32,000 nucleotides of DNA from Mycobacterium tuberculosis H37Rv. GTDB taxonomy: Bacteria; Actinomycetota; Actinomycetes; Mycobacteriales; Mycobacteriaceae. Under the pieces are notes generated by a model. That model had not been told where the DNA came from. It saw nothing but the letters and a program-made list of their open reading frames with translations, and searched no databases. The stretch is taken from assembly GCF_000195955.2 (NCBI RefSeq), contig NC_000962.3, forward strand, positions 2,820,001 to 2,852,000, read 5' to 3'. This document shows positions 8,556 to 29,332 of the stretch, in pieces. The position numbers and the translations under genes were made by a program. The stretch's first letter is position 1. Each line of letters begins with the position of its first letter.

Positions 8556-9803
8556 CTAGGTGGTCAGTGCTGGGGTGTTGGTGGTTTGCTGCTTGGCGGG
8601 TTCTTCGGTGCTGGTCAGTGCTGCTCGGGCTCGGGTGAGGACCTCGAGGCCCAGGTAGCGCCGTCCTTCGATCCATTCGTCGTGTTGTTCGGCGAGGACG
8701 GCTCCGACGAGGCGGATGATCGAGGCGCGGTCGGGGAAGATGCCCACGACGTCGGTTCGGCGTCGTACCTCTCGGTTGAGGCGTTCCTGGGGGTTGTTGG
8801 ACCAGATTTGGCGCCAGATCTGCTTGGGGAAGGCGGTGAACGCCAGCAGGTCGGTGCGGGCGGTGTCGAGGTGCTCGGCCACCGCGGGGAGTTTGTCGGT
8901 CAGAGCGTCGAGTACCCGATCATATTGGGCAACAACTGATTCGGCGTCGGGCTGGTCGTAGATGGAGTGCAGCAGGGTGCGCACCCACGGCCAGGAGGGC
9001 TTCGGGGTGGCTGCCATCAGATTGGCTGCGTAGTGGGTTCTGCAGCGCTGCCAGGCCGCTGCGGGCAGGGTGGCGCCGATCGCGGCCACCAGGCCGGCGT
9101 GGGCGTCGCTGGTGACCAGCGCGACCCCGGACAGGCCGCGGGCGACCAGGTCGCGGAAGAACGCCAGCCAGCCGGCCCCGTCCTCGGCGGAGGTGACCTG
9201 GATGCCCAGGATCTCTCGGTAGCCCTCGGCGTTGACGCCGGTGGCGATCAAGGTGTGCACTCCGACGACGCGGCCTGCCTCGCGCACCTTGAGCACCAGG
9301 GCGTCGGCGGCGAGGAAGGTATACGGGCCGGCATCGAGCGGGCGGGTCCGAAACGCCTCTACGGCTTCGTCGAGCTCTTTGGCCATGATCGACACTTGCG
9401 ACTTGGAAAGCTTTGTCACACCAAGTGTTTCGACCAGGCGCTCCATCCGGCGAGTGGATACTCCCAGCAGGTAGCAGGTCGCCACCACGCTGGTCAGTGC
9501 GCGTTCAGCTCGCTTGCGGCGCTGCAGCAGCCAGTCCGGGAAATAGCTGCCCTGGCGCAGCTTGGGGATCGCGACGTCGATGGTTGCGGCACGGGTGTCG
9601 AAATCACGGTGGCGGTAGCCGTTGCGCTGATTGGACCGCTCATCGCTGCGTTCGCGGTAGCCCGCCCCGCACAGGGCGTCGGCTTCAGCCCCCATCAAGG
9701 CGGCGATGAACGTCGAGAGCAGCCCGCGCAGCAGATCCGGGCTCGCCTGTGCGAGTTGGTCAGCCAGAAGCTGCTCGGTGTCGATAAGATGAGAAGAGGT
9801 CAT
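8556..9803 (-). CDS. IS1081 transposase (IS256/mutator family)
   Basis: ORF 8556-9866. Start taken at ATG 9803 (MTSSHLIDTEQLLADQLAQASPDLLRGLL, 415 aa). The sequence is a typical IS256-family transposase and is bounded by the IRs. Confidence 0.95.
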   Translation of the reverse strand: MTSSHLIDTEQLLADQLAQASPDLLRGLLSTFIAALMGAEADALCGAGYRERSDERSNQRNGYRHRDFDTRAATIDVAIPKLRQGSYFPDWLLQRRKRAERALTSVVATCYLLGVSTRRMERLVETLGVTKLSKSQVSIMAKELDEAVEAFRTRPLDAGPYTFLAADALVLKVREAGRVVGVHTLIATGVNAEGYREILGIQVTSAEDGAGWLAFFRDLVARGLSGVALVTSDAHAGLVAAIGATLPAAAWQRCRTHYAANLMAATPKPSWPWVRTLLHSIYDQPDAESVVAQYDRVLDALTDKLPAVAEHLDTARTDLLAFTAFPKQIWRQIWSNNPQERLNREVRRRTDVVGIFPDRASIIRLVGAVLAEQHDEWIEGRRYLGLEVLTRARAALTSTEEPAKQQTTNTPALTT

Positions 9804-9840
9804 TGCGTCATTTCCTTCGATTGACTTTTGCTGGTCGTTT

Positions 9841-9855
9841 CGAAGGATCACGCGA
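9841..9855. repeat. IS1081 terminal inverted repeat (right in window coordinates)
   Basis: Exact reverse complement of 8532-8546. Confidence 0.9.
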
Positions 9856-10160
9856 TGACCGCCCACTACTGGGCTACGACACGCCCACCGGCCTTACCTG
9901 CCCGTACACCACACCCCTGGACGTAACTCCGCGCCGATGACTACAAGGCAAAGATGCTGGCTGCGTTTAGGTCTCACGATGCCGTGTTAAGAGAGTTCGA
10001 AAAGCTCGGCCGCTATCATCAGTCAACCGGGCACGGCTGCCTCTGCGGCAAACGAAACTGTGCAACGCTGTCCATCATCGATAGCAACCAGATATATGGC
10101 CACATTGACCGAATGAATCGCCGCGACGAGCTTGGCTAAGCCACAACAGAGAGAAACAAG

Positions 10161-10583
10161 GTGGACGACATCGCAGCATTCAAGCTCGACAGCCTGCCGG
10201 ACATAACCTTCACGGTCACGCGGGCCATAAGTTCGGGTGGGGAAAATCCGGCGGGGTTTCTCAATTTCGCGGCGCGCCGAGAGCAACCGGAGATCCTGGG
10301 TGGTGGAGGCCGTCCTGGACCGGTGGGCCCGGAAGCGGTCGATACTCCACGTATTCGCGGCGGGAAGGTGCCGTTCGTCTTCCGGACGCTACCGGGTTAC
10401 ACCTTCTACGCCAGCCAAATCGAGCCGAGAGTGGGCGACCCGGAAGGGCCCACACTCCTGGCTGGATTCGGCAATATCCCTGAGACTTCGCAGCGGTCGC
10501 CGGGATGGATCCGCATCACCTGCACGGGGCCAGACGACGATGAGGAGCTGGAATTCTTTGGATTCGCCGGGCCAGAGTCCTAA
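10161..10583 (+). CDS. Hypothetical protein, 140 aa, no recognisable domain (Rv2513-like)
   Basis: GTG-initiated ORF from the track. It has an acidic C-terminus and a Gly/Pro-rich middle. I see no motif I recognise. It lies in a compositionally atypical region. Confidence 0.55.
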   Translation: MDDIAAFKLDSLPDITFTVTRAISSGGENPAGFLNFAARREQPEILGGGGRPGPVGPEAVDTPRIRGGKVPFVFRTLPGYTFYASQIEPRVGDPEGPTLLAGFGNIPETSQRSPGWIRITCTGPDDDEELEFFGFAGPES

Positions 10584-10876
10584 CCAGGCGATGAACGAAG
10601 GATCGGCGACGGCTACGAACCTGGATAGGCAAGAATGGCGCACCGAAGCGTCACTCGACGTCGGCCGGCCGGAGAACGCACCACGAAACGAAACACTTGT
10701 GAGGACCAAGATTCTCCGATCTTCGGGTAGCACCCGAGAGCATGTCGTTAGGCCTGTCGGCATGGGCGCCGGCAAGGTCCTCCAGCCGGGTGATGGGCGT
10801 CGCAGAGTACAGACGTGGCTGCTGTCCGCAGGCTGAAGCGGATGAAGTGACAGCCCAGCGGCGCGGCCAGAAGCTC

Positions 10877-11338
10877 TCAGAAAGTCCATCCCTGCGCCTC
10901 GATATAGCCCATCAGAGTTAGCCACGGCACGCCAAGAGCGTCGCAGACATCGGGGATGCGCGGCTTTTCGATATTGCCGCTCGCAGTCTCCTGGGTAACC
11001 ACCGTGGCGTTGTTCACCATCGCGAGCGCGATGACGAACGGGTCGGCGGCGCTTCGCCTGCCACCCTGCCGGACCATGTTCGGGTGCAACCGCAAGATGT
11101 GCCGCGCCGCCTGCTGGATCTGTTCATCCAGAGGACAGAACAAGCCAGTTTGCCCGTCCGCCCACCGCTTCGCGTCATCATCACGCCTGGCGAGTTCGCG
11201 CTGAACCTCATCGACCGACCTGATCTGACCGGCGCTGATCGCATCCTCAACCCGGCCCCACAGACTGCGAAACACCGCTGGCCGAAACAGATCACGCCGT
11301 CCGTTCAGGATGGCGCTGGTATCGAAGGAATAGAGCAC
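10877..11338 (-). CDS. PIN-like nuclease of the DUF4411 type (Rv2514c-like), putative toxin or effector
   Basis: 153 aa. Acidic PIN-like signature positions are present: N-terminal YSFDTSAIL (D6), ADPFVIALA, VVTQE, and KPRIPDVCDALGVPW near the C-terminus. This pattern matches what I recall for DUF4411. The start lies 5 bp after the stop of the upstream HTH-peptidase gene. Confidence 0.8.
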   Translation of the reverse strand: MLYSFDTSAILNGRRDLFRPAVFRSLWGRVEDAISAGQIRSVDEVQRELARRDDDAKRWADGQTGLFCPLDEQIQQAARHILRLHPNMVRQGGRRSAADPFVIALAMVNNATVVTQETASGNIEKPRIPDVCDALGVPWLTLMGYIEAQGWTF

Positions 11339-11343
11339 AGCGG

Positions 11344-12591
11344 TTAGACCACGCTCCGCAGTTCGGCTGACTCAGCCAACTTCGGAATCTGGCTGACCTT
11401 GGCGTCGAGGTAGATCGCAGCGGTGTTGCTGTCGATGACGCGGCGGCGGTGGGCGTCGGTCACCGCCCGCACGTAGCCCTTACCGAGGTCTCGGACGGTA
11501 TTGCGGTACCAGTTGCCGCCCCCAGCCGATCGAGCCCGTTCGGCCTCGTCCTCGTGAGCCGCGATGAACTCGGCGCGGCGCTGTCGGTAGACCTCGACCG
11601 GCACGATTCCAAGCGTGCTTAGCCGCCGCAGGAACGCCTCGGCACTCACGCCAAAATGCGCCGCGACCGGCCGCAGCGATTCGTAATCCCACGAAGACGG
11701 AGTCTCGCTGCGAACGATGACCTCCGGCCGCGCTCGCACCACGTCGGCAGGCATCAGCACAGCGGCGGCGATCGCGTTGCATCGAGCCTCCAGCGATCGG
11801 TCCTGGGTGCTCGGATGAGCATCGGCGATCACGTCACACAAGCCCTCGGTGTGCAGCACCACGTGCACGAACTCATGCAGCAGCGAGAACAGGCGAGGGC
11901 GGGGGTGGTCGCTGCCATTGAGCACGATCACCGGCAATTCGTCGAAATACAGACACATACCGCGCATCTCGTCGATAGCGACCTTGCCGCCGCGGGTCGC
12001 GAGCACCAGAACGCCGGACGTTTCGATGGCCGACACCCAGGCGTTCAGATGCTCGTAAGGGTCAACCGAGGCCACGGGGATAGGCAACGGGCTGACCTCG
12101 ATCAAGGCCTTGCGGATTCGTGCCGCGATATCCGCGTCGGCCTCGTCGCCGGATAGGGGCAAACGCCAGGCGCCCGGTATCTCCCGGTCCTCGGCGTCGG
12201 CCAGCTCTAGCGCGAAGTCGCGTTGCGTGTGTGCGCGACGGAACTCCTCGTGAAGCCCCGGCGTCCATTGACCCGACGCGGCACCGTCCAATCGTCGGAA
12301 GTCGCGTAAGGTGTCAAACCCCTCGGGCGGCTCGGACAGGAAGAACACCGCCAGCGAGCGCTTGTAGACCTCGGCGGCCTTGCGCAGCTGCGCGATGGTT
12401 GGCACAACCTCGCCCACCTCCCAAGCCGCGACGCGATCATCAGGCAGGCCGAGTTTGCGGGCCGCGGCTACCTCGGTCAGGCCACACGACTCGCGAGCCC
12501 AACGGAGCACCGAGCTCTCCACCGAAGCGGGAATCGACCGCATGGCAATGATGATGCACCACCCCACCCACATTGGATGGCCGATACCCAC
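11344..12591 (-). CDS. Fusion of an Xre-family HTH with an ImmA/IrrE (M78, COG2856) zinc metallopeptidase (Rv2515c-like), putative antitoxin or sensor
   Basis: HTH region: SVLRWARESCGLTEVAAARKLGLPDDRVAAWEVGEVVPTIAQLRKAAEVYKRSLAVFF. The zinc-binding HEFVH motif is encoded at 11863-11877 (LLHEFVHVVLH). The longest ORF starts at GTG 12591 (415 aa). ATG 12543 (MRSIPAS..., 399 aa) is an equally plausible start. Confidence 0.85.
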   Translation of the reverse strand: MGIGHPMWVGWCIIIAMRSIPASVESSVLRWARESCGLTEVAAARKLGLPDDRVAAWEVGEVVPTIAQLRKAAEVYKRSLAVFFLSEPPEGFDTLRDFRRLDGAASGQWTPGLHEEFRRAHTQRDFALELADAEDREIPGAWRLPLSGDEADADIAARIRKALIEVSPLPIPVASVDPYEHLNAWVSAIETSGVLVLATRGGKVAIDEMRGMCLYFDELPVIVLNGSDHPRPRLFSLLHEFVHVVLHTEGLCDVIADAHPSTQDRSLEARCNAIAAAVLMPADVVRARPEVIVRSETPSSWDYESLRPVAAHFGVSAEAFLRRLSTLGIVPVEVYRQRRAEFIAAHEDEAERARSAGGGNWYRNTVRDLGKGYVRAVTDAHRRRVIDSNTAAIYLDAKVSQIPKLAESAELRSVV

Positions 12592-12709
12592 GCTTGGTTC
12601 CCGACCAGCCGATTAACCGCTCCCCCGCAACCTGGCGAGACGGTACTCGCCGCGTTCGGCGTCTGGGACGGTGTGCCGTGAGACCGGCTGCGGTGTAACG
12701 CCTTACGAA

Positions 12710-13513
12710 CTAGTGAGCAGGGTGCAACGGGACGGCCGCCCACTCGTCCTGTCCAGCCCAACGGACGTATAGCTGATTTGGAAGGGGATGGCCCCAAGCC
12801 GCTATCAAGACCATGTTGAGCCCCTCTCCGGGGCGAATCACCGTCTTCTTCGGGACATTTCGAGTGATCGCATCGATTCGCGAGAGGTCAATCTCGACAT
12901 CTTCTGCGATATCGTCGCCGATGTTGCGCAACACAAAGCGGATTTTGTCTGGGTTCTCGACACGCCACCGGACGTTAGGTGCCTTACCGGACCTGCCGAC
13001 CGCCGGTCCCACCGCCCACGAGTACGCGAACTTGGCAGTCCCGGTATGCGGCCGACCGGGCTTTCGCTCCCAGGTCTCCGCAAACCTGCGCACCGCTGCC
13101 GCATCCCACACCGCGCCTCCACGCAAATCTGCCAACGGAGCGGGAAACCCTGCTGTCGACCTCAATTGGTGCACCCTCTGACGCGAAACCCCCAACTCAT
13201 CCGCGATCTCAGCCGCAGACATCAACTCGGGCGTTGTGAACGCCTCAGCGCGCAGACGATGCTCTGGCTCGCTAATGATCTGCACAGCAATGGGACTCTT
13301 GGCTTGAACTACCGGCATAACCTCGCCAGCCATCTTGGCGAGCGCGTCGAACACACTCCAATCGCCGGGCGCATAGACCGTGACGTCAATGCCGTGTCCT
13401 GGGACCCGAGATACCAGTGCGTCGAAGCCCTCGAGCTGCGTCTCCCAGGCGTCCATGGTCTCCATCGAAGGGTCAGCATCAAACGTGAAGGTGACGACCC
13501 AGTCGGCTGTCAC
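12710..13513 (-). CDS. Three-domain hypothetical protein with a central excisionase/MerR-like HTH (Rv2516c-like)
   Basis: The GTG at 13513 overlaps the upstream stop as GTGA, giving 267 aa. The N-terminus is an alpha/beta domain of about 95 aa. The central HTH is MSAAEIADELGVSRQRVHQLRSTAGFPAPLADLRGGAVWDAAAVRRFAE. The C-terminus is a beta-rich domain of about 110 aa (VRWRVENPDKIRFVLRNIGDDIAEDVEIDL...). The track's longest ORF begins at 13570. Confidence 0.75.
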   Translation of the reverse strand: MTADWVVTFTFDADPSMETMDAWETQLEGFDALVSRVPGHGIDVTVYAPGDWSVFDALAKMAGEVMPVVQAKSPIAVQIISEPEHRLRAEAFTTPELMSAAEIADELGVSRQRVHQLRSTAGFPAPLADLRGGAVWDAAAVRRFAETWERKPGRPHTGTAKFAYSWAVGPAVGRSGKAPNVRWRVENPDKIRFVLRNIGDDIAEDVEIDLSRIDAITRNVPKKTVIRPGEGLNMVLIAAWGHPLPNQLYVRWAGQDEWAAVPLHPAH

Positions 13514-13761
13514 TGTGCGCCTTCCTTCCTGTGCTGTGCCCGCCGTTCCTTCTTGCTCGGCGGTGGCCACGTCAGGCCCGCTTTCTTCAACGCGCCCAAT
13601 AGGTCTCGCATCCGGCGGTACTCGTTGCTAGGTGTTGCCGGAAACCGAGCAATATAGACGCCCTGGGGGTTGTAGAAGCGGGTGTAGCCGCTGGCGTCAT
13701 CCTCAACCGTCCATTGTTGCGATTGCGCCCACTTCGCGATCTTGATGATTGCGCTGTTCAC
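13510..13761 (-). CDS. Small basic-tailed protein with HicA/YcfA-like topology (Rv2517c-like)
   Basis: GTG 13761 is preceded by GGGGAGA, giving 83 aa. The track ORF starts at TTG 13803. IAKWAQSQQWTVEDDASGYTRFYNPQGVYIARFPATPSNEYRRMRDLLGALKKAGL aligns by eye with the HicA consensus (helix, GSH strand, hpdG turn, vP strand, lrsILkqAGL helix). The Tyr in SGY replaces the catalytic His. Confidence 0.6.
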   Translation of the reverse strand: MNSAIIKIAKWAQSQQWTVEDDASGYTRFYNPQGVYIARFPATPSNEYRRMRDLLGALKKAGLTWPPPSKKERRAQHRKEGAQ

Positions 13762-14108
13762 ATCGTCTCCCCAACACTTGCGATGTGTCAAGAGTAATGG
13801 CAAGACGCGACATCGTAAAGGTTTTAGCCGGACTCATTCGAATATTTGAGCGATGTAGCCAGTGAGTGGGTGCTCCGATGATCACGGCTTCGCGCGAGCT
13901 CGCCCCGGCTGGCCTCATGATCGCCGACCGGCTGGGCTTCACCCGGTCTCAGTGGTTCTCCCAGTCGCGAAGGAACACCCGAGTGTCGTCATGGTCCGCG
14001 CGGTTGGGCACTGCGGCCATCGGATGTCATCGTCGTACAACGAACCATGCGGTCGTTGCAGGGCGTGTATCAGGCGCTGTTGGTTGTCTGGCGTTCCTCG
14101 CGGCGCGC

Positions 14109-15335
14109 TTACGCCTTGGCGTTACCGGCGCGCCACTGGTCCCACGGAATGTTCCAATCGCCGAGCCCGTCGATCCCCGGCAGGGTGCCACCCACGGTAT
14201 TGACCACCTCGACGATGTCGCCGCGCTTGACATGGTCGTAGAACCACTGCGCGTTGCTCGGGCTGACGTTCAGGCAGCCATGGCTGGTGTTGGTGTGGCC
14301 CTGAGCCCCCACCGACCACGGCGCTGAGTGCACGAAGACACCGCTGTAGGAGATCTGGGTGGCCCAGTCGACATCGGTGCGATATCCGTTGGGCGAGTTG
14401 ACGGGTACGCCGTAGGTGGACGAGTCCATGATGATGTGCTTGTACCGCGAGCCGACGATGTATATGCCGTTGGCCGTCGGGGTGCTGTCCTTGCCCATCG
14501 ACGTCGGCATGGACTTTACGACCTCGCCATTCACCCGCACGGTCAGTATCTTGGTGTTGTCGTCGGCGGTCGCGATCACCTCGTCGCCGATGGTGAAGTG
14601 CGTCTGCACGTTGTCCTCGCCGAACATTCCCTCGCCCAAGTCGACGCCGTAGGTGTTGACCGCCACATCAACGGCCGTACCTGGCTTCCAGAAATGCTCT
14701 GGGCGCCAACGCACTTCACGGTTATTCAGCCAGTAGAACGCGCCCTCCACGGGCGGGTTGGTGGTGATCTTGATGGCCTTCTCGGCCGCGCCCCGGTCAG
14801 CGATGTTCTCGTCGAATCGGATCGCCACCGGCTCGCCGACACCCACGACCTCCCCATCACCGGGCATGACGTAGGGCATGGTCAGGTGCGCGGGGGAACT
14901 GGTCTGGAAGGTCAGCTGGCGGGTCGCCGCGCCACCCAGTCCAAGCGCCGTCGCGTTCAGCGTGTAGCGCCTGTTGTAGCCGAGCTGCTCAGTGGTCGAC
15001 CAGCGCAGTCCGTCGGGGCTGAGTCGACCGGCCACCGGCCTGCCGTTGTCGTTGACCATGGTGACGGCCGCCAGCACACCGTCGGCGGCGGTCACCGACA
15101 CCGGTGCATCCACGGTGACGCCGACGGCGCCGTCGGTGACCGACGCGGTGAGCTTGGGCACCAGCAGATCGGCGAACGGCGTGCCCTTGTCCGCGATGAC
15201 CTTGATCGGTGCGGGTCCGCGGCCGCTGCCGCATGCGACGGCACCGATCATCACGGCGGTCATCATCAGCGCGGTTAACCAGGCTCTCCGAACCCTGGTC
15301 CTACCCGCCTGAGCTGCAATCCCCACCTTTGGCAT
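14109..15335 (-). CDS. ldtB: L,D-transpeptidase lipoprotein LdtB (LdtMt2 / LppS)
   Basis: Lipobox (MIGAVAC) after a signal peptide, two Ig-like regions, and a YkuD catalytic domain with HSAPWS...TSHGCLN. Start taken at ATG 15335 (408 aa). The track ORF starts at 15356. Confidence 0.95.
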
Positions 15336-15493
15336 GCCTTCCCTCACCTCCCCCACTGCGTCGTGACCGAGCTAGACTCGGCTGTAGTCTAGGTCCTGAC
15401 TGGCCGCCACGCTGCGATGCTGATACCAAGTTCAGTGTGAGATTTCACGCGAGAGCGCAAGGCCTGTTAATGTGCCTTGGCTAGGTAATCGAG

Positions 15494-15566
<73 letters not shown>

Positions 15567-15784
15567 CAGGTCAACGCGTTATTTCGGATGCACCAGCCGC
15601 AGCTGTCCCGTTGGGCGACGATTTCCGTATTCGGAAGGTGCACGCCGGTTACCGGATTTGGGCAGCGGATCGGATCGGAGCCACGGGGATAGCTCGACGA
15701 GACAGCCGGGGAAGCCGCAGAAAATTGGGTTGTAGGCGCGTGCAATAGCTACGCTGCATGTGGACAGCGGGGAAGAGGTTAGTT

Positions 15785-20122: not shown

Positions 20123-23100
20123 TCAGCCGATATACGCCTCGCCGTCACCCAGCCGGGCCGCCGGATTCAGCAGCATCGACGCCTCCTGCGGCCGCTCGGG
20201 CGCGTGGTGGTCGAAGCGACGGTCACCGGGCCGCTGGTACATCGGCGCACCACCGGCAATCGCCGAGGCCAGCCGGCGCTGACCGGCCAGCAGGCGGGCG
20301 TCGGCACGCCGCTGGTAGTCCGCGCGCTGTGCGGGATCCAGCGAGGCGATGAACGCCTGCGGATGCACCAACGCGACCAGGCCCGACACATGGCCGAACC
20401 CGAGGCTGGTCAGCATGCCGGCCTTGAGTGGGAACTTGCCGCCGAGCCGCAACGTGTCACGCACCCACACGAAATGCGCGGAGCCGGCCAGCTCGTCGTC
20501 GACGCAGTCGAGGCTGCGGTTGGGTGGGATCACCCCATCCCGCAATATCTGGCAGAGCCCCATCATCTGGAAGACCGCCGCGCCGCCCTTGGCGTGGCCG
20601 GTCAGGCTCTTCTGCGACACCACGAACAGCGGGGCGCCCTCGGAACGGCCCAGGGCGTCGGCGAGCCGTTCATGCAACTCGGTCTCGTTGGGATCGTTGG
20701 CCAGCGTCGAGGTGTCGTGCTTGGAGATGACCGCCACGTCGTCGGCGGCCACGCCCAGCTTGGCCAGCGCCCGCGCCAGCGGTGAATCCTTGCCGCCGCG
20801 GCCCGCCCCCAGCGCGCCCAGGCCCGGGGCCGGGATCGAGGTGTGCACGCCGTCGCCGAACGACTGCGCGAACGCCACCACCGCCAGCACCGGCAGCCCC
20901 ATCCGCAGCGCCAGGTCCCCGCGGGCCAACAGGATCGTCCCGCCGCCTTGGGCTTCGACGAAGCCCAGACGGCGGCGGTCGTTGGGCCGGGAAAACTTCG
21001 AGTCGTGGATGCCGCGGCCGCACATCATGGACGTGTCGGCGGTGGCGGCCATGTCACCGAATCCGATGATGCCCTCCAGCGTCAGGTCATCCAGGCCGCC
21101 GGCCACCACCAGTTGAGCCTTGCCCAACCGGATCTTGTCGACACCTTCCTCGACCGACACCGCGGCGGTGGCGCACGCGGCTACCGGGTGGATCATCGCA
21201 CCGTAGCTACCGACGTAGGACTGAACCACGTGCGCGGCAATGATATTCGGCAAGACTTCCTGGAAGATGTCGTTCGGCTTGTTGCGGCCCAACAGATTGC
21301 CGTGGTACATCGTCTGCATCGACGTGCCGCCGCCCATGCCGGTGCCCTGGGTGTTGGCCACCAAACTCGGGTGCACGTAACGCATCACCTCGGCCGGGCT
21401 GAAACCGGACGACAGGAACGCGTCGACGGTCGCCACCATGTTCCATACCGCCAACCGGTCGATGGAACCGGCCATGTCTGCGCTGATGCCCCACACCGTC
21501 GGGTCGAACCCGGTCGGGATCTGGCCGCCGACGACGCGGGACAGCTTGGTCTTTCGCGGCACCCGGATCTCGGTGCCGGCCTTGCGGATGACCTGCCAGT
21601 CGGTGGAGTCGGGCACCGGCCGGATGACCGTGTGCTCGGGATCGAACTCGACGAAGGCGCGCGCATCGGCCTCCGAGGACACCACGAACGCGAAGTCCTT
21701 CTCCAGGAACACCGACACCAGCAGCGGCGAGGCGTGGTCGGGGTCGATCGCGCCGTCATCAACGAATTCGCGAATGCCGACGCGCTGCACCACGGCGTCG
21801 TGGTAGCGCTGCACCAACTCGGATTCGTCGACCATTTCGCCGGATTCGGTGTCGTACCAACCGGGTTGCGGGTCGTCCTCCCAGCGGATCAACCCAGTGG
21901 TCCAGGCCAGCTCCAGCACGCCGGCCGCCGACAGCTCGTTTTCGACCTCCATCTCGAACCGGGTGCGTGACGAGCCGTACGGGCCGATTTCGGCGCCGCC
22001 GACGATCACCACCAGGTCGGCCGGGTCGACATCGAGGTCGTCCCATTGCGGCGGCGGTGCGGGGGTGAAACCCCGGGGCGGCGACGGCAGCGCGGCGATG
22101 GCGCCAGGGGCCTCGGCGTCCTCGTCGACGGCCGCCGCTGCCGACATCTGCTCGCGCGCCTTGGCCGCCAGCTCGGCCATGTCGAGGTTGGCCTCGGCCA
22201 GGCCCCCGGTCAGGTCGGCCTTGATCGGCGAACGCGCCGCAGCCACCTTGGATTCCGCATCACACAGGTCGAGCAGCAGCGCCGCCATCTCGTCGGTCGA
22301 GTAGGTGGTGACCCCGGCCTCTTCGACGGCGGCCACGATGGCATCGTTGTGGCCCATCAGCCCGGTGCCGCGGGTCCAGCCGATGAGCGCGTGCGCCAGG
22401 CTGACCCGTGCCGCCCAGGACGACTCGGCGTGCCAGCGGCTCACCACGGCATCCAGCGCGGACTTGGCTTCGCCGTAGGCGCCGTCGCCGCCGAACATGC
22501 CACGGTTGGGCGAGCCGGGCAGCACCACGTGCAGCCGCGACGCGATGTCGCGTTCGGCGCCGATCGTCGACAGGCCGCCGATCAGCCGTTGCACGGCCCA
22601 CAGCAGCACTTTCATCTCCATCTCGGCGCGCGAACCGGCCTCCGACAGGTCCCCGACCACGCGTGGCGCCGCGAACGGGAACAGCAGCGTCGGGGTCTGC
22701 GCGTCTTTGATGTGAATCGACTGCGGCCCAAGGCTTTCGGTCTGTTCGGTGCCGATCCATTCGACCAGGGCGTCGACGTCGGAGTAGGACGCCATGTTCG
22801 CCGCGACCAGCCACAGCGCCGCGCCGTAACGGGCGTGGTCGCGATACAGCGTGCGGTAGAACGCCAGCCGCTCCTCGTCGAGCTTGGAGGTGGTCGCGAT
22901 GACGGTGGCTCCGCCGTCGAGCAGCCGAGCCACCACCGACGCGGCGATCGAACCCTTCGAAGCGCCGGTCACCACGGCAACTTCGCCGCCGTAGCGGCCG
23001 GGTTCGGGGTTCTCGGCGCCGGCGGCGATGCGGCCGTACAGCGATGCATGGATCTGCCGGCCCGCGGCCAGCGACTTACCTTGCCACCAGGTAGCCTGGG

Positions 23101-26100
23101 TCGCCACGACGTGGCCGGCACCCTCGAAGCGCTCCGCCAGGCGCGGCCAGTCGGCGTCGATGTCGCCCTCGTCGGTCAGCCACAGCTTCACCAGGTCCTC
23201 GCGGGCGCTGGCCCAGCGGTCGTCGAATACGACGGCCTTCTTGGGGTCGAACACCGGTGCCACCAACCGCGGCCAGTCCGCTCCCAGTTCGGCGGTGACC
23301 AAGTCGATCAGCTCGGAATCGGGGGCGGCCGGCAAGGCGTTGACGGGGTCGTCCAGTCCCAGCTGCCCCAGCACCAGGCGGGCCGCGGAGGCCAGCACGC
23401 CCTCACGGCCGGTGATTTGGTCGGTGAACTCGCTGAGCGCGGCCGCGTCGATGGTGGCGCCGCCACCACTACCGGCCGACGGCAGCGCTACCGAAACGCC
23501 CTGGCGCGCGGCCACCGATGCGACCGCCGCGTCGATGACCTTGTCGACGGAGGCGGCATCGGCCAGCGCGCCCTCGTGCAGGTGGCCCATGGCGCCGCCG
23601 CGAACGCTGCTGCCCTCGCGGGTGCCCAGCGCGACCTCGACGGTGACATGCTTGGCCCAGCCCTCACCGAGCTCCCAGGTCTTCTTCACCCGCTCGGCGA
23701 TGGCGCCGGGCCGCTTGCCCGACGGTCCGAGGACGGTGCGAAGCTGGTCGTTGATGGCGTCGGAAAGCACTGGGCCGTAAGGCTTGTAGGTGCGCGCCAG
23801 TTTGGTCACCTGTGAGCGCAGACCGGCCAGGTCCGATTCGGCGGCGCCGTCAATGGCACCGAGGTTCAGCTCGGAGCCCAGGTCCACCAGCAGCTGGTTG
23901 CGCCGCGACGACGCACCGTCGGTGATGGACTCGATGGAGTCGAGTTCTTCGATCTGGTCGATGCGCATCTTGGCCGAGAGCGCGATCAGCGCCAGCGTGG
24001 CATCGGCGGCGTCGAAAACCAGATCGTCGGGACGCGGGCCCGCCGACGAAGCGGCCGGCGCGACGGGGGCGGCTTCCGAGACGACGTCCGGCGCGGGCGA
24101 TTCCGCGACCGGCTCGTCTTCCTCCGGCTCCGGCTCCGGGTCGGTGTCGGTGGCGAACAGCACCGCGGCATCACGCTCGGCGTTGAGCACTTCCACTGTG
24201 CTGTGGGCGTATTCGGGCAGTTTGAGGGTGTTGGTGGCAAGACCCGCCACCGTCGGTGAGCTCTTCACACCGATCTCGACGAATCGCTCCACACCCAGCC
24301 CGCCGGCGGCCTCCTCGATGAACAGCAGATCCTGCGTCTCGATCCAGCGCACCGGGCTGGCGAATTGCCATGCCAGCAGCTCGATGAACACCGTGCGCGC
24401 CATCTCGCGCGGACGCTCGCGAAGCCAGGTGTCGTAGTCGGCGAGGATCTCGTCGAGCGGCTCGGCGGGCACCAAATCCCGGATTTCCTGGATGAAGTCG
24501 CGGTCCAGGGTGAACAACCGCGGCACCAGGTTGGGAATGTAGCGCCCGATGATCAGGTCGGGGTCCGCGTCGCGCGGCATGACCCGGTCCAGCGAGCGCC
24601 GGAATTCGGCCACCCCGACCCGCAGCACTCGCGAGTGGAACGGAACATCGATGCCGGGCACCAAAATGAACGACCGTCGGCCGCCGGTGAGCTCGCGGCG
24701 CCGCTCCACCTCGGCCTCGAGCGCCTCGAGGCCGCGTACCGTGCCCGCGATCGCGTATTGCGAGCCACGCAGGTTGAAATTCACGATCTCCAGGAATTCA
24801 CCGGTGCTCTCCGCGATCCCGGCGACGAACGCGGGCACGTCGGCGTCGTCGAGGTCGATCTGGGACGGCCGGATGGCCGCCAGCCGATAGTTGGAGCGGC
24901 CGAGCTCGTCGCGCGGAACGATGTCGTGCATCTTCGACCCGCGGTGAAACACCATCTCCAGCAAGGCTTCCAGTTGGTAGATGCCGGTCACGCAGGCCAG
25001 CGCGGTGTACTCGCCGACCGAGTGGCCGCACGCGATGGCGCCTTCGACGAAGGCTCCCTGTTCACGCATCTCGGCGACCTGCGCGGCCGCCACCGTCGCC
25101 ATCGCGACCTGGGTGAACTGCGTCAGGTAGAGCACCCCGTCGGGGTGGTGGTAGTGCACACCGCTGGCGATGATGCTGGTCGGGTTGTCGCGGACCACGT
25201 GCAGTACCGAGAAGCCCAGGGTGTCGCGGGTGAACTTGTCCGCGGTGTCCCACACCTTGCGGGCCGCCTTGGAGCGGGCGCGCACCTCCATGCCCATGCC
25301 CTTGTGTTGGATGCCCTGGCCGGGGAATGCGTAGACCGTCTTGGGTGCGGCCAGTCGCGCGGAGGCCGACATCACTAGATCCGACCCGACGCGCGCGGCC
25401 ACGTCCACAATCTCTGCGCCCTGGTCGATTCCGACGCGCTCGACGCGGAAGTCCACCTCGTCGCCGGGGCGCACCATGCCCAAAAACCGCGCGGTCCAGC
25501 CGACCAGCCGGGCCGGTGGCCGGGCCTGCCCGTCGGTGGCGGTCACCGCGTGTTGCGCCGCGGCCGACAGCCACATGCCGTGCACGATCGGCGACTCCAG
25601 GCCGGCAAGCAGCGCGGCGGCCCGGTCGGTGTGAATGGGGTTGTGGTCGCCGGACACCACCGCGAACGGGCGCATGTCGACCGGCGCGGTGATCGTGACG
25701 TCGCGGCGGCGACGGCGCGGGGTGTCGGTGGCGTTCGCCGACACCGCGCCACCGGCTCGCGCCGGGTCGGCGAGCTCGGCGGAACCGGTGCGACCCAGGA
25801 TCGCGAATCGCTCCTCGAGAGTGGCGATCACGGCGCCATCGGCGCCGGTAACGACGACCGAGACCGGCACGACGCGGCCCATGTCCGTATCGGTTGCGTT
25901 GGCAGCCGTTGCGGTGACGGTCAATTGGGCCGGGACCGTGGGCAGCTGACCGACCACGCGGGCGGCGTGGTCCAGATGCACCAGGCTCAGCAGGCCTTCC
26001 ACCACCGGCTCACCGGTGTCGGTGACCGCCGATCCGATGGCCGCGAAAACCGCTGGCCAACAAGGGCCGACGAGCGCGTCGGGCACGTTGGTGAGGCTGG

Positions 26101-29100
26101 GTGCCAGCGGCTCACCGAACGTGGCGGTGACGCCGGTGTGGTCGGCAACACGCTCGGGGTGCCAGTCCACCGTCAAAGTGGCCGTCCCGTTGGCCACCGC
26201 AGGCAAGAACTCCGGGCTGTCGACACCGGCGGCGATCGCCAGCACCGTGCGCATGGCGCTGGTGGCGTCCTCGGTGGCGATCACCGGGGTGCCGCCATCG
26301 ACGGTGTTGGCCGGCAACGTGAATCGGATGTCGACCCAGGTGCCCGAGACGGGCACGCTCAAGGCGACGTCGTCGCCGTGCGTCTGCAGCCGGGCGCCGG
26401 TGGATGAGTGTGTGGCGCGCGGGTTTTCGGGTCCATCGTGCACCTGCCATTCGGCCGGGTCGGCGATCCGATGCACCGGGTTGGTCACGGTGCGACCGGC
26501 CCAGCGCACATCGGGTGCGTCGAGGACGACAGCCAACGGTCCGGCCACGTCGGCGCGGCCCAGCCGGCGCGACGCGACATCCTTCGGCTCGACACCGGCG
26601 CCGAGCACTTCATCGATTGCGGCTTGCTCGAAACGGTCCAGCAACTCACCGACGGGTTCATCCATCCGGGTGATGCCGGCTACCGACGCGGTGCCCGGAA
26701 TGATGCACACCGCATCGGCGTCGTAGCGGGCGTCGTGGGCCTGCCACAGCGAGTCGCTGCGCCACCAGCGCCGCACGTCCTGGTCGATCACCGGCACGAA
26801 GTTGACCGGCTTGCCCAGCGTCTTGCACAACGTCACGAAAAAGGGCACATCCGCGGGATGCAACTGCACGGTCTCGGCGTCGGGGTAGCGCGCCAGCAGG
26901 GCGGCGATCGCCTGCTGCGGATTGTCCAGCAGGCCAGCATCGGTGAATAGCGTCTGGATCGGGCCGAAATCCTGTGGGTGCAACCGGGCTTCGGCACGCT
27001 GCAGCATCTGCTCGAAGCGGTCCCGCCAGGTGTCGGCCAGCCACGGGCTGCCCACCGAGGCGGTGTCGGCGGTCGAGTTGCCTTCCCCGATGGCCAGTTC
27101 GACGTAGCGCCGCAGCCACTGCAGGTAGGTCATGTCGGCGACGTCGCCGAAGTAGGGCTTGGCGGTCTTGGCCATCGCCGCGATGATCTCGTCGCGACGC
27201 TCCGCGACCGCCTCCGCGTCACCGGCCACCTCGTCGAGCAGCCGCCCGCACCGGGATGCGCTGTTGTCGATCTCGTGGATATCGGCACCGAGCTGACTGC
27301 GGCTGGAGGCCATGCCGCCCTGCGCTTTTCCGGCGCTGATCCATTGGTCGGTGCCCTGAGTGTCGACGAGCATCCGCTTGACCGATGGCGACGTGGTGGA
27401 TTCCTTGGTGGCCATCGCCGCGGTGCCGACCAGGATGCCGTCGATCGGCATCAATGGGAAGCCGTAGGCCTGCGCCCAGCGCCCGGACAAATATTCCGCA
27501 GCCCTTCTCGGGGTGCCAATGCCGCCGCCGACGCACACCGTGATGTTGGCGCGTGAGCGCAACTCCGAGTAGGTAGCCAGCAGCAGGTCGTCGAGATCCT
27601 CCCAGGAATGGTGCCCGCCGGCGCGCCCGCCCTCGACGTGCATGATCACCGGCTTGGTGGGCACCTCGGTGGCGATGCGAATCACCGAGCGGATCTGCTC
27701 GATGGTCCCGGGTTTGAACACGACGTGGCTGATGCCGATGTCGCCCAGTTCGTCGATCAGCTCGACGGCCTCGTCGAGGTCTGGGATGCCGGCGCTGATC
27801 ACCACGCCGTCGATCGCGGCGCCGGACTGGCGGGCCTTCTGCACCAACCGCTTGCCGCCCACCTGAAGCTTCCACAGGTAGGGATCGAGGAACAGCGCGT
27901 TGAACTGATAGGTGCGGCCCGGCTCGAGCAGGCCGGCCATTTGTTCGATGCGGTTACCGAAGATCTCTTCGGTGACCTGCCCGCCGCCGGCCAGCTCGGC
28001 CCAGTGCCCGGCGTTGGCCGCCGCGGCGACGATCTTGGCGTCCACGGTGGTCGGGGTCATGCCCGCGAGCAGGATCGGCGAGCGGCCGGTCAGCCGGGTG
28101 AACTTCGTCGAGAGCTTGACCCTGCCGTCGGGGAGGCGAACCACGGTCGGTGCGTAGCTCGACCAGGCCCGGGCAACCTCGGGGGTGGCGCCGACGGTGA
28201 ACAGGTTGCGCTGGCCACCGCGGGTAGCCGCCGGCACGATGCCGATGCCCAGGCCGCGGATCACCGGTGCGGTCAGTCGGGTCAGGATGTCGCCCGGCCC
28301 CAGGTCGAGGATCCAGCGGGCGCCGGCCGCGTGGACACGGGTGATCTCGTCGACCCAGTCGACCTTTCTGATCAAGATGGCATCGGCCAGCTCCCGAGCC
28401 AAGGCGACATCGAGGCCCGCCTTCTCGGCCCAGCCCGCGACGATGTCGATCCCGTCGGATAGCCGCGGGGTGTGAAAGCCCACCTCCACCTGCACCGGCT
28501 CGAAGACCGGCGAGAAGACGTCGCCGCCGCGGACCTTGTTCTTGCGGTCGGCTTCTTCCTTCTCGGAGATCTGGCGGCAATAAAGCTCGAAACGCGACAG
28601 CTGCTCGGGGGTGCCGGTGATGACGACGGCACGCCGGCCGTTGCGGATGGACAACACCGGTGGCAGCACCGTGCGCACGTCCTGGGCGAACTCGTCGAGC
28701 AACCGGCCGATGCGCTCGGGGTCGGCGTTGGTGACCGATACCATCGGCGGGCGATCGCCCAGGACGGAAATTCCGCGCCGGCGGGCCACCAGCGTTCCGG
28801 CGGCACCGATCAACTGGGCCAAGGCAAACAGCTCGACGTCGCGTGCCCCACCAGCCTTGAGGGCTTCCACCGCCAGCACACCTTGCGAATGCCCCGCCAT
28901 GGCGACCGGCGGGGTGGCCACGAGGTCCATGCCTTGACGGGCCAGCGCCCGGGTCGCCGCGATCTGGGTAAGCAACACGCCGGGCACCGACACGGCGGCC
29001 GACGTCAGGTGCTTGTCGGACGGAACCGGGTCCTCGGCCGCCAGTGCGCGTACCCATTGCAGCGGCTCGAAACCGATCGGGCGCACCACAATCAGCTCGT

Positions 29101-29332
29101 CGGTGACCGGATCGAGCAACAGCTCTGCCTCACCGACCAACGTCGCCAACTCGGTTTCTATCCCGGTGGCCGACACCAGCTCTTCGAGGGTTTCCAGCCA
29201 GGCGCTGCCCTGGCCACCGAATGCGACAGCGTAGGGCTCACCAGCCATGAGGCGATCGACCAGAGCGTGGGTGGTATGCGGGCTGTCCCCGCCGCGATCA
29301 GCGGACACCCGGTCGTGCTCGTGGATCGTCAC
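20123..29332 (-). CDS. fas: Type I multifunctional fatty acid synthase (FAS-I; AT-ER-DH-MPT-ACP-KR-KS)
   Basis: Single 3069-aa ORF. It contains acyltransferase GHSQG and GHSVGE motifs, an FMN-type enoyl reductase TIM-barrel region, a hotdog dehydratase region, an ACP segment, a KR Rossmann segment (VAVVTGASKGSIA) and a C-terminal ketosynthase with active-site ACATAAVS. Confidence 0.98.
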   Translation of the reverse strand: MTIHEHDRVSADRGGDSPHTTHALVDRLMAGEPYAVAFGGQGSAWLETLEELVSATGIETELATLVGEAELLLDPVTDELIVVRPIGFEPLQWVRALAAEDPVPSDKHLTSAAVSVPGVLLTQIAATRALARQGMDLVATPPVAMAGHSQGVLAVEALKAGGARDVELFALAQLIGAAGTLVARRRGISVLGDRPPMVSVTNADPERIGRLLDEFAQDVRTVLPPVLSIRNGRRAVVITGTPEQLSRFELYCRQISEKEEADRKNKVRGGDVFSPVFEPVQVEVGFHTPRLSDGIDIVAGWAEKAGLDVALARELADAILIRKVDWVDEITRVHAAGARWILDLGPGDILTRLTAPVIRGLGIGIVPAATRGGQRNLFTVGATPEVARAWSSYAPTVVRLPDGRVKLSTKFTRLTGRSPILLAGMTPTTVDAKIVAAAANAGHWAELAGGGQVTEEIFGNRIEQMAGLLEPGRTYQFNALFLDPYLWKLQVGGKRLVQKARQSGAAIDGVVISAGIPDLDEAVELIDELGDIGISHVVFKPGTIEQIRSVIRIATEVPTKPVIMHVEGGRAGGHHSWEDLDDLLLATYSELRSRANITVCVGGGIGTPRRAAEYLSGRWAQAYGFPLMPIDGILVGTAAMATKESTTSPSVKRMLVDTQGTDQWISAGKAQGGMASSRSQLGADIHEIDNSASRCGRLLDEVAGDAEAVAERRDEIIAAMAKTAKPYFGDVADMTYLQWLRRYVELAIGEGNSTADTASVGSPWLADTWRDRFEQMLQRAEARLHPQDFGPIQTLFTDAGLLDNPQQAIAALLARYPDAETVQLHPADVPFFVTLCKTLGKPVNFVPVIDQDVRRWWRSDSLWQAHDARYDADAVCIIPGTASVAGITRMDEPVGELLDRFEQAAIDEVLGAGVEPKDVASRRLGRADVAGPLAVVLDAPDVRWAGRTVTNPVHRIADPAEWQVHDGPENPRATHSSTGARLQTHGDDVALSVPVSGTWVDIRFTLPANTVDGGTPVIATEDATSAMRTVLAIAAGVDSPEFLPAVANGTATLTVDWHPERVADHTGVTATFGEPLAPSLTNVPDALVGPCWPAVFAAIGSAVTDTGEPVVEGLLSLVHLDHAARVVGQLPTVPAQLTVTATAANATDTDMGRVVPVSVVVTGADGAVIATLEERFAILGRTGSAELADPARAGGAVSANATDTPRRRRRDVTITAPVDMRPFAVVSGDHNPIHTDRAAALLAGLESPIVHGMWLSAAAQHAVTATDGQARPPARLVGWTARFLGMVRPGDEVDFRVERVGIDQGAEIVDVAARVGSDLVMSASARLAAPKTVYAFPGQGIQHKGMGMEVRARSKAARKVWDTADKFTRDTLGFSVLHVVRDNPTSIIASGVHYHHPDGVLYLTQFTQVAMATVAAAQVAEMREQGAFVEGAIACGHSVGEYTALACVTGIYQLEALLEMVFHRGSKMHDIVPRDELGRSNYRLAAIRPSQIDLDDADVPAFVAGIAESTGEFLEIVNFNLRGSQYAIAGTVRGLEALEAEVERRRELTGGRRSFILVPGIDVPFHSRVLRVGVAEFRRSLDRVMPRDADPDLIIGRYIPNLVPRLFTLDRDFIQEIRDLVPAEPLDEILADYDTWLRERPREMARTVFIELLAWQFASPVRWIETQDLLFIEEAAGGLGVERFVEIGVKSSPTVAGLATNTLKLPEYAHSTVEVLNAERDAAVLFATDTDPEPEPEEDEPVAESPAPDVVSEAAPVAPAASSAGPRPDDLVFDAADATLALIALSAKMRIDQIEELDSIESITDGASSRRNQLLVDLGSELNLGAIDGAAESDLAGLRSQVTKLARTYKPYGPVLSDAINDQLRTVLGPSGKRPGAIAERVKKTWELGEGWAKHVTVEVALGTREGSSVRGGAMGHLHEGALADAASVDKVIDAAVASVAARQGVSVALPSAGSGGGATIDAAALSEFTDQITGREGVLASAARLVLGQLGLDDPVNALPAAPDSELIDLVTAELGADWPRLVAPVFDPKKAVVFDDRWASAREDLVKLWLTDEGDIDADWPRLAERFEGAGHVVATQATWWQGKSLAAGRQIHASLYGRIAAGAENPEPGRYGGEVAVVTGASKGSIAASVVARLLDGGATVIATTSKLDEERLAFYRTLYRDHARYGAALWLVAANMASYSDVDALVEWIGTEQTESLGPQSIHIKDAQTPTLLFPFAAPRVVGDLSEAGSRAEMEMKVLLWAVQRLIGGLSTIGAERDIASRLHVVLPGSPNRGMFGGDGAYGEAKSALDAVVSRWHAESSWAARVSLAHALIGWTRGTGLMGHNDAIVAAVEEAGVTTYSTDEMAALLLDLCDAESKVAAARSPIKADLTGGLAEANLDMAELAAKAREQMSAAAAVDEDAEAPGAIAALPSPPRGFTPAPPPQWDDLDVDPADLVVIVGGAEIGPYGSSRTRFEMEVENELSAAGVLELAWTTGLIRWEDDPQPGWYDTESGEMVDESELVQRYHDAVVQRVGIREFVDDGAIDPDHASPLLVSVFLEKDFAFVVSSEADARAFVEFDPEHTVIRPVPDSTDWQVIRKAGTEIRVPRKTKLSRVVGGQIPTGFDPTVWGISADMAGSIDRLAVWNMVATVDAFLSSGFSPAEVMRYVHPSLVANTQGTGMGGGTSMQTMYHGNLLGRNKPNDIFQEVLPNIIAAHVVQSYVGSYGAMIHPVAACATAAVSVEEGVDKIRLGKAQLVVAGGLDDLTLEGIIGFGDMAATADTSMMCGRGIHDSKFSRPNDRRRLGFVEAQGGGTILLARGDLALRMGLPVLAVVAFAQSFGDGVHTSIPAPGLGALGAGRGGKDSPLARALAKLGVAADDVAVISKHDTSTLANDPNETELHERLADALGRSEGAPLFVVSQKSLTGHAKGGAAVFQMMGLCQILRDGVIPPNRSLDCVDDELAGSAHFVWVRDTLRLGGKFPLKAGMLTSLGFGHVSGLVALVHPQAFIASLDPAQRADYQRRADARLLAGQRRLASAIAGGAPMYQRPGDRRFDHHAPERPQEASMLLNPAARLGDGEAYIG

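Follow-up and report, generated by a model that had tools for sequence, protein, structure and literature searches.

The window considered here is a stretch of 32,000 nucleotides (nt) of Mycobacterium tuberculosis H37Rv (contig NC_000962.3, positions 2,820,001 to 2,852,000). A window coordinate equals the H37Rv coordinate minus 2,820,000, an offset that is fixed by the start sites published by Shell et al. Within the window lies a pair of adjacent genes, vapB52 and vapC52, which encode an antitoxin and a toxin. The pair is laid out as follows, with protein lengths in amino acids (aa) and each gene given as an open reading frame (ORF).

11344-12591, minus strand: vapB52 (Rv2515c), the antitoxin as annotated; ORF with a GTG start at 12591, 415 aa, and a TAA stop at 11344-11346
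11344-12543, minus strand: likely true coding sequence of vapB52, beginning at the in-frame ATG 12543 (M17 of the annotated ORF), 399 aa
11339-11343, minus strand: spacer CCGCT, 5 nt from the vapB52 stop to the GTG start of vapC52, a tight coupling
10877-11338, minus strand: vapC52 (Rv2514c), the toxin; ORF with a GTG start, 153 aa

With a probability of about 0.92, this pair can be identified as VapBC52 (Rv2515c-Rv2514c), a type II toxin-antitoxin module of M. tuberculosis. The evidence comes from a sequence search of the PDB. All 153 of the toxin's 153 residues are identical to chain D of entry 9VZY, and entry 9VZZ differs from the window's toxin by the mutation D6A only. Residues 24-415 of the antitoxin show 100% identity to chain A of 9VZY. 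Both entries were deposited with the VapBC52 paper (Singh et al., NAR 2026; PMC13273310). Because both proteins are identical to the crystallised ones, the locus is one already published as VapBC52. It is no discovery, as structures, biochemistry and infection data are in print. The present analysis adds M17 as the probable start (399 aa), a block of conserved DNA upstream of it, and a survey in which the two genes occur together at 78 of 79 loci.

The toxin belongs to the family DUF4411. In Pfam its match to this family (PF14367) has an E-value (E) of 1.1e-43 and a score of 149.3 bits against a cutoff of 23.5, and covers positions 1-159 of the 159-position profile. The match to the PIN family PF01850 stays below its cutoff, at 18.3 against 23.6 bits. 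Four acidic residues form the active site, and all four are invariant across an alignment of 19 toxin homologues. Their codons were located by script.

11321-11323, minus strand: vapC52 active-site codon D6
11195-11197, minus strand: vapC52 active-site codon E48
11042-11044, minus strand: vapC52 active-site codon D99
10988-10990, minus strand: vapC52 active-site codon E117

VapC52 is a metal-dependent tRNase; it cuts tRNAs in the anticodon loop or the variable loop and thereby stops growth (PMC13273310). Its substrates are several M. tuberculosis tRNAs and tRNAs encoded by phage D29, and each of the mutations D6A, E48A, D99A and E117A abolishes tRNA cleavage in vitro (PMC13273310). The crystal structure of the toxin, at 2.6 A, contains an open VapC52 dimer, and non-cognate VapB antitoxins can cross-neutralise the toxin (PMC13273310).

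The antitoxin is a fusion of several parts. Residues are numbered here by the 415-aa ORF. The numbering in the VapBC52 paper is mixed: V24, A356/G357 and V415 refer to the full-length protein, while H216, H220, C229, E245 and F75-R76 refer to the delta-23 construct, from which residues 1-23 were removed, and correspond to H239, H243, C252, E268 and F98-R99 of the 415-aa ORF. The following features can be placed on the gene, where HTH stands for helix-turn-helix.

12346-12507, minus strand: Xre-type HTH (residues 29-82; Pfam HTH_3, E=1.7e-8, above the cutoff), within the N-terminal domain that grips the outer face of the VapC52 dimer
12295-12300, minus strand: FR motif F98-R99, where the N-terminal domain meets the middle domain; the self-cleavage site proposed in PMC13273310, positioned by script
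11617-12024, minus strand: M78/ImmA-IrrE zinc-peptidase core (residues 190-325; Pfam Peptidase_M78, E=1e-21, 77.4 bits against a cutoff of 22)
11863-11877, minus strand: HEFVH, residues 239-243 (H239, E240, H243), located by script
11836-11838, minus strand: cysteine-switch residue C252, located by script; role from PMC13273310
11788-11790, minus strand: third zinc ligand E268, located by script; role from PMC13273310
11347-11523, minus strand: C-terminal four-helix domain (residues 357-415), which covers the active site of the toxin; limits and function as seen in the crystal structure (PMC13273310)

A preliminary description of this DNA, made from its letters alone, had placed two minus-strand genes 5 bp apart, with a stop at 11344-11346 and a start at 11338, and a script confirmed every one of these coordinates. 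It had also read the upstream protein as a fusion of an Xre HTH with an M78 peptidase carrying HEFVH at 11863-11877, and the downstream protein as a PIN-like member of DUF4411 with four acidic positions. The Pfam matches and residues listed above bear out both assignments, with scores much higher than chance would give. The same description took the pair to be uncharacterised, which is wrong: toxicity and rescue were reported in 2019 (PMC6504116), and structures, biochemistry and in vivo results in 2026 (PMC13273310).

Structural work divides VapB52 into three domains. The N-terminal one is an HTH domain, the middle one resembles the zinc peptidases IrrE and CapP and, like IrrE, contains a further HTH subdomain, and the C-terminal one consists of four helices (PMC13273310). 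The zinc is held by two His, one Glu and one "cysteine switch" Cys, and the presence of C252 on the zinc keeps the middle peptidase inactive (PMC13273310). In the crystal structure of the complex, at 3.2 A, VapB52 and VapC52 are combined 1:2, with a Kd of ~267 nM by isothermal titration calorimetry (PMC13273310). The N-terminal domain is needed for toxin binding in pull-downs. Single-stranded DNA (ssDNA) induces self-cleavage of VapB52 in vitro, which frees the N-terminal HTH domain, and this cleavage is lost in H216A/H220A (PMC13273310).

A single three-domain VapB52 neutralises a VapC52 dimer by gripping it from outside with the N-terminal HTH domain and blocking the active site with the C-terminal helices (PMC13273310). 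For events in the cell a mechanism can be proposed. In the cell, ssDNA produced by damage to DNA or by replicating phage would activate the VapB52 peptidase. Self-cleavage would then remove the N-terminal domain and free the toxin in vivo, and the freed VapC52 would cut tRNAs, leading to growth arrest or abortive infection.

Before the locus was recognised as a published one, it had been described as a protease-gated toxin-antitoxin or anti-phage pair. In essence this was right. The first part stands, in the form of a toxin-antitoxin module with a self-cleaving antitoxin (PMC6504116, PMC13273310); as to the second, a role against phages has been suggested, though VapC52 co-expressed with VapB52 gave no protection against D29. 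A protease-gated toxin-antitoxin mechanism could thus be inferred from the raw sequence alone.

VapBC52 shares parts with several known systems. In RosmerTA (RmrT/RmrA) the antitoxin is, like VapB52, a fusion of an Xre HTH with an ImmA/M78 peptidase. In PADLOC, whose models come without curated cutoffs, 14 models of RmrA, the RosmerTA antitoxin, match VapB52 (best E=8.4e-17), and several of these matches cover both the HTH and the peptidase, e.g. residues 22-338. The toxin of VapBC52 differs: it is a DUF4411 PIN RNase and is matched by no RmrT model. A further difference is the additional C-terminal domain of VapB52, by which the active site of the toxin is blocked. By the toxin criterion, VapBC52 is not a member of RosmerTA.

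A second relative is CapP/CapH of the cyclic oligonucleotide-based antiphage signalling system (CBASS). The CapP model of PADLOC matches VapB52 with E=1.7e-14. Both proteins have an IrrE-type peptidase with a cysteine-switch loop that is activated by ssDNA, and a structural similarity has been reported (PMC13273310). However, CapP cleaves a separate repressor, CapH, and so induces CBASS transcription, whereas VapB52 cleaves itself and so releases a toxin. CapP also has a GAF domain, which is not among the three domains of VapB52 (PMC13273310). Four flanking ORFs were scanned with Pfam and PADLOC and contained no CBASS component. VapBC52 is therefore not a CapP/CapH system: VapB52 cleaves itself, and CBASS genes are absent from the flanking ORFs scanned.

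The next-best PDB sequence matches of VapB52 are IrrE structures, at E=9e-5. ImmA/ImmR of ICEBs1 and IrrE/DdrO of Deinococcus share with VapB52 the M78/COG2856 zinc-peptidase core and a link between DNA damage and cleavage of an HTH protein. Unlike VapBC52, these systems cleave a separate repressor to de-repress genes, and they have no toxin. Since VapB52 cleaves itself, protease and substrate are one chain.

Classical VapBC modules combine a PIN toxin of PF01850 with a small VapB of the AbrB, RHH or Phd type. VapBC52 resembles them in its PIN-like fold, its four acidic residues, its tRNase activity and the order of antitoxin followed by toxin. The differences are several. VapC52 lies in DUF4411, with a PIN score below the cutoff; VapB52 is a protein of ~45 kDa (399-415 aa) with a peptidase, unrelated to VapB proteins; and the complex is a 1:2 assembly with an open toxin dimer. 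VapBC52 is thus a VapBC system by fold and activity, not by the Pfam PIN family or by VapB homology.

Further evidence for the pairing comes from a survey of related loci. The 19 diverse toxin homologues, taken from a protein search and aligned, were used to fetch 80 loci from contigs of one genome per species, with M. tuberculosis itself not among them. They represent Actinomycetota, Acidobacteriota, Chloroflexota, Gemmatimonadota, Planctomycetota, Spirochaetota, Bacteroidota, Nitrospirota and Proteobacteria. At least 1.2 kb of upstream DNA is available for 79 loci, and in 78 of them tblastn places a near-full-length VapB52 homologue immediately upstream, on the same strand as the toxin; its homology typically spans residues 18 to 405-415. 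Co-occurrence of the two genes across genomes, on which the pairing proposed from the sequence depended, is thus what was found. In these 78 loci the distance from the antitoxin stop to the toxin start is mostly -4 to +8 nt.

The sole exception is a locus from a metagenome-assembled genome of Pseudonocardiaceae (L034, 1123-4426), in which the two genes are ~1.7 kb apart and the toxin is N-terminally truncated. At another locus, from Kocuria soli (L017, 3043-3975), antitoxin homology is present from residue 96 on, so the HTH domain that binds the toxin at the N-terminal end seems to have been lost or exchanged. Both loci are decayed variants of the module.

The motifs of the antitoxin are highly conserved. 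Among 71 aligned homologues, R99, H239, H243 and E268 are present in all 71, E240 in 70 and C252 in 69. F98 occurs in 64, with Y in its place in 5. Because the catalytic and cleavage motifs are kept in essentially all homologues, the published self-cleavage machinery belongs to the whole family, and the mechanism described for M. tuberculosis VapBC52 probably applies throughout it. The design of a self-cleaving antitoxin, with its FR site, HExxH and cysteine switch, is conserved together with a DUF4411 toxin across many phyla.

The genes that flank the pair in M. tuberculosis do not travel with it. Rv2513, Rv2516c, Rv2517c and ldtB are absent within 4 kb of the pair in all 80 loci. A larger conserved cassette around the pair was considered and rejected, as no M. 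tuberculosis neighbour was present in any of the 80 loci. Since the neighbours are absent, the two genes move as an autonomous module. The vapBC52-type pair is an autonomous, tightly coupled and horizontally mobile module found across many phyla. Relatives also occur on a few plasmids, where they adjoin ImmA/IrrE or XRE genes. In sequenced phages the pair is rare, with 1 match in 50,697 records; PHROG families exist for both the toxin and the antitoxin.

The comparison of homologues also bears on where translation of vapB52 begins. In the 71 aligned relatives, homology starts at residues 17-19 of the annotated ORF. Upstream DNA was compared for 9 loci, and in the closest relatives an ATG is aligned with M17 (ATG 12543). 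The antitoxin ORF of M. vanbaalenii is 401 aa long. Because homology begins at residues 17-19 and the relatives' ATG aligns with M17, the true start of Rv2515c is probably ATG 12543, giving a protein of 399 aa, and the annotated start is probably wrong. The published work is unaffected by this choice, as residues 1-23 were removed there (PMC13273310). Two features stand directly before the proposed start.

12544-12572, minus strand: block conserved in the closest relatives, TGTGGGTGGGGTGGTGCATCATCATTGCC, directly before ATG 12543 (comparison of the 9 loci)
12551-12556, minus strand: -10-like CATCAT, 7 nt before ATG 12543

The conserved block has a recognisable pattern: TGTGGGT comes first, a variable stretch follows, and the last part is GCATCAT or GCATGAT, whose end lies 6-7 nt from the ATG. 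No Shine-Dalgarno sequence is seen before ATG 12543 in the block; in more distant relatives a ribosome-binding site of the GGAGG type precedes the equivalent start. The vapB52 mRNA may well be leaderless, and the annotated first 16 codons are candidate promoter or operator DNA.

The annotated first 16 codons of Rv2515c (window 12544-12591, minus strand, MGIGHPMWVGWCIIIA) are not conserved as protein.

A generic sigma-70 scan of 10600-14100 found no promoter-like site, although its model is uninformative for mycobacterial promoters. The same region was scanned for terminators, and none lies between the four same-strand genes Rv2517c, Rv2516c, Rv2515c and Rv2514c. A search for operator palindromes upstream of vapB52 gave only a weak inverted repeat of 11 nt (12629-12656, 82% complementary) and no perfect 7-nt palindrome common to the relatives.

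The protein pair has a history that predates its structures. In 2009 Makarova et al. gave Rv2515c as an example of an Xre-COG2856 fusion, tabulated 42-60 operon associations of COG2856 with PIN proteins, and proposed a protease-controlled toxin-antitoxin system (PMC2701414). In 2017 DUF4411.1 was predicted to be the toxin of systems with HTH and DUF955 (PMC5499597). In 2019 TASmania found Rv2514c strongly toxic in M. smegmatis and the Rv2515c/Rv2514c operon able to rescue (PMC6504116), a conclusion for which Tandon et al. (JBC 2019) are also cited. In 2023 NetFlax tied ImmA/Rosmer-type antitoxins to PIN-like toxins (PMC10440598). Given the reports of 2009, 2017 and 2023, the initial remark that a PIN-like RNase is not the canonical partner of such an antitoxin is only partly fair. 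More recently, deletion of vapBC52 was found to attenuate M. tuberculosis in macrophages, on copper and in guinea pigs (PMC13273310). According to a 2025 preprint, deficiency of rv2515c reduces survival in a transmission model; free toxin is one possible explanation (PMC12458190).

Several observations weigh against the reading of the pair as a toxin-antitoxin module that acts through release of VapC52. The trigger step has been seen only in vitro, with the purified delta-23 protein, and release of the toxin from the complex after cleavage is presumed. The toxin has no match among PADLOC families at E<=0.1. The phenotypes in macrophages, on copper and in guinea pigs belong to the vapBC52 deletion and do not appear in a deletion of vapC52 (PMC13273310); what matters for these defects is therefore the antitoxin, or the two genes jointly, and not toxin activity. 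Against D29, over-expression of the toxin by itself protected, co-expression of VapB52 removed the protection, and several unrelated toxins acted like over-expressed VapC52 (PMC13273310). Because protection is lost with VapB52, these experiments do not speak for defence by the intact system.

Three other explanations can be set beside the toxin-antitoxin reading. The module may serve mainly for abortive infection, as a dedicated anti-phage system of the RosmerTA kind, in which phage ssDNA would cause the antitoxin to destroy itself and the PIN toxin would then cut host and phage tRNAs. This is possible, if on the doubtful side. Matches to RmrA and CapP models, self-cleavage triggered by ssDNA, cleavage of D29-encoded tRNAs (PMC13273310) and the existence of PHROG families for both proteins all agree with it, as do the patchy, mobile distribution of the module and the enrichment in defence systems of ImmA-type antitoxins, which are tied to PIN-like toxins (PMC10440598). 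But the D29 experiments speak against it, as protection came from over-expressed toxin, as with several unrelated toxins, and not from the two proteins together. Neither an RmrT model nor any other PADLOC model matches the toxin, sequenced phages seldom carry the pair, and none of the flanking genes examined is a recognised defence gene.

An unlikely alternative is that VapB52 is chiefly a DNA-damage-responsive regulator or protease switch, comparable to ImmA/ImmR or IrrE/DdrO, with targets beyond its own toxin and with VapC52 as an accessory. The difference between the vapBC52 and vapC52 deletions would fit, as would the cost of rv2515c deficiency in the transmission model (PMC12458190), for which free toxin also offers an explanation. 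The combination of an Xre HTH with a second HTH subdomain as in IrrE, and a published LexA peak upstream of the adjacent same-strand genes, point the same way. Yet no DNA target or second substrate is known for VapB52, and its N-terminal HTH domain serves toxin binding. In addition, the antitoxin is coupled to the toxin in 78 of 79 loci, which argues that control of the toxin is its conserved job. Far less probable still is the three-component model of 2009, in which the COG2856 protease would cleave a separate Xre repressor or antitoxin encoded nearby, e.g. Rv2516c. It was the original model from comparative genomics (PMC2701414), and an HTH protein, Rv2516c, is indeed encoded just upstream on the same strand. 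However, in VapB52 the HTH is fused to the protease, the crystallised complex has two proteins only, Rv2515c alone rescues toxicity (PMC6504116), cleavage is autocatalytic (PMC13273310), and none of the 80 related loci contains Rv2516c or Rv2517c. The published complex, the autocleavage and these absences effectively refute it. The type II toxin-antitoxin module VapBC52 remains the preferred reading.

The surroundings of the pair contain the following features.

7854-7929: tRNA-His gene
8556-9866, minus strand: Mutator-family transposase, 436 aa (Pfam Transposase_mut, E=7e-157), between tRNA-His and the toxin-antitoxin genes; presumably IS1081
10161-10583, plus strand: ORF of 140 aa, probably Rv2513, the only ORF between the insertion sequence (IS) element and vapC52; no Pfam, PADLOC or NCBIfam match
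12710-13513, minus strand: Rv2516c, HTH protein, 267 aa
13513-13761, minus strand: Rv2517c, 83 aa, no Pfam match
13791-13796, minus strand: TACTCT, -10 element of the start site at 13784
13838-13853: SOS-box-like sequence TCGAATATTTGAGCGA, 54-69 nt upstream of start site 13784, located in this analysis within the published LexA peak
14109-15356: YkuD L,D-transpeptidase with a Big_10 domain
15494-15567: tRNA-Lys gene
20123-29332: ORF of 3069 aa, which we take to be fas

The two genes upstream of vapBC52 form a unit of their own. The stop codon of Rv2517c and the start codon of Rv2516c overlap in GTGA. Homologues of Rv2517c are widespread in actinobacteria, and in two unrelated contexts such a homologue is followed by a protein of 157-166 aa, with overlapping or abutting stop and start codons. 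These proteins are 49-58% identical to the first ~175 residues of Rv2516c. A Mycolicibacterium goodii contig carries one homologous pair, in a region that resembles a prophage; the other pair is found in Tomitella, next to imuA'/imuB-like genes. At its C-terminal end the M. tuberculosis Rv2516c continues for a further ~110 aa, which are missing from the two homologues compared. Rv2517c/Rv2516c is thus a second conserved two-gene module, separate from vapBC52, and the earlier suggestion that the pair adjoins another toxin-antitoxin-like pair is supported by these homologous pairs in unrelated contexts.

A confident AlphaFold2 model of Rv2517c has a predicted local distance difference test (pLDDT) score of 84 and the order helix-strand-strand-strand-helix. 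As to whether Rv2517c is a HicA-like toxin, a Foldseek comparison with the PDB gave no significant match; the HicA-like structures 1whz and 6g26 appear at E>0.3, with template modelling (TM) scores of 0.43-0.58.

Transcription of these neighbours has been mapped. Shell et al. list minus-strand start sites at H37Rv 2833784, which precedes Rv2517c by 23 nt, and at 2833755, which precedes Rv2516c by 242 nt; this fixes the gene starts at window positions 13761 and 13513, respectively. Smollett et al. found a LexA peak by chromatin immunoprecipitation sequencing (ChIP-seq) at H37Rv 2833811-2833900, assigned to Rv2517c, with an SOS box of 3 mismatches (PMC3381160). Moxifloxacin raises Rv2517c 2.6-fold (PMC7911356). 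LexA, SOS and the neighbours Rv2517c/Rv2516c go unmentioned in the VapBC52 paper (PMC13273310). vapBC52 lies 118-166 nt downstream of Rv2516c.

It may be, though this is a tentative and rather improbable proposal, that VapB52, which the virulence, macrophage and copper phenotypes require while vapC52 is dispensable for them, has a role of its own beyond restraining VapC52, and that Rv2517c-Rv2516c-Rv2515c-Rv2514c form a DNA-damage-responsive cluster, controlled transcriptionally through the LexA site and at the protein level through the ssDNA-activated antitoxin. At native expression the pair would then act as an ssDNA-sensing stress or abortive-infection switch.

The wider region had been taken for a tRNA-linked island. 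The two tRNA genes, the transposase and a modest dip in G+C content (0.58-0.63 over ~9600-14400 against a window mean of 0.66) speak for this, and no integrase or att repeat was identified, although these were not searched for in depth; an island is plausible. The lower G+C around the pair fits horizontal acquisition. Between the transposase and vapC52, a stretch of ~1 kb (9867-10876) has a G+C content of 0.59-0.61 and may be the remnant of an acquired segment.

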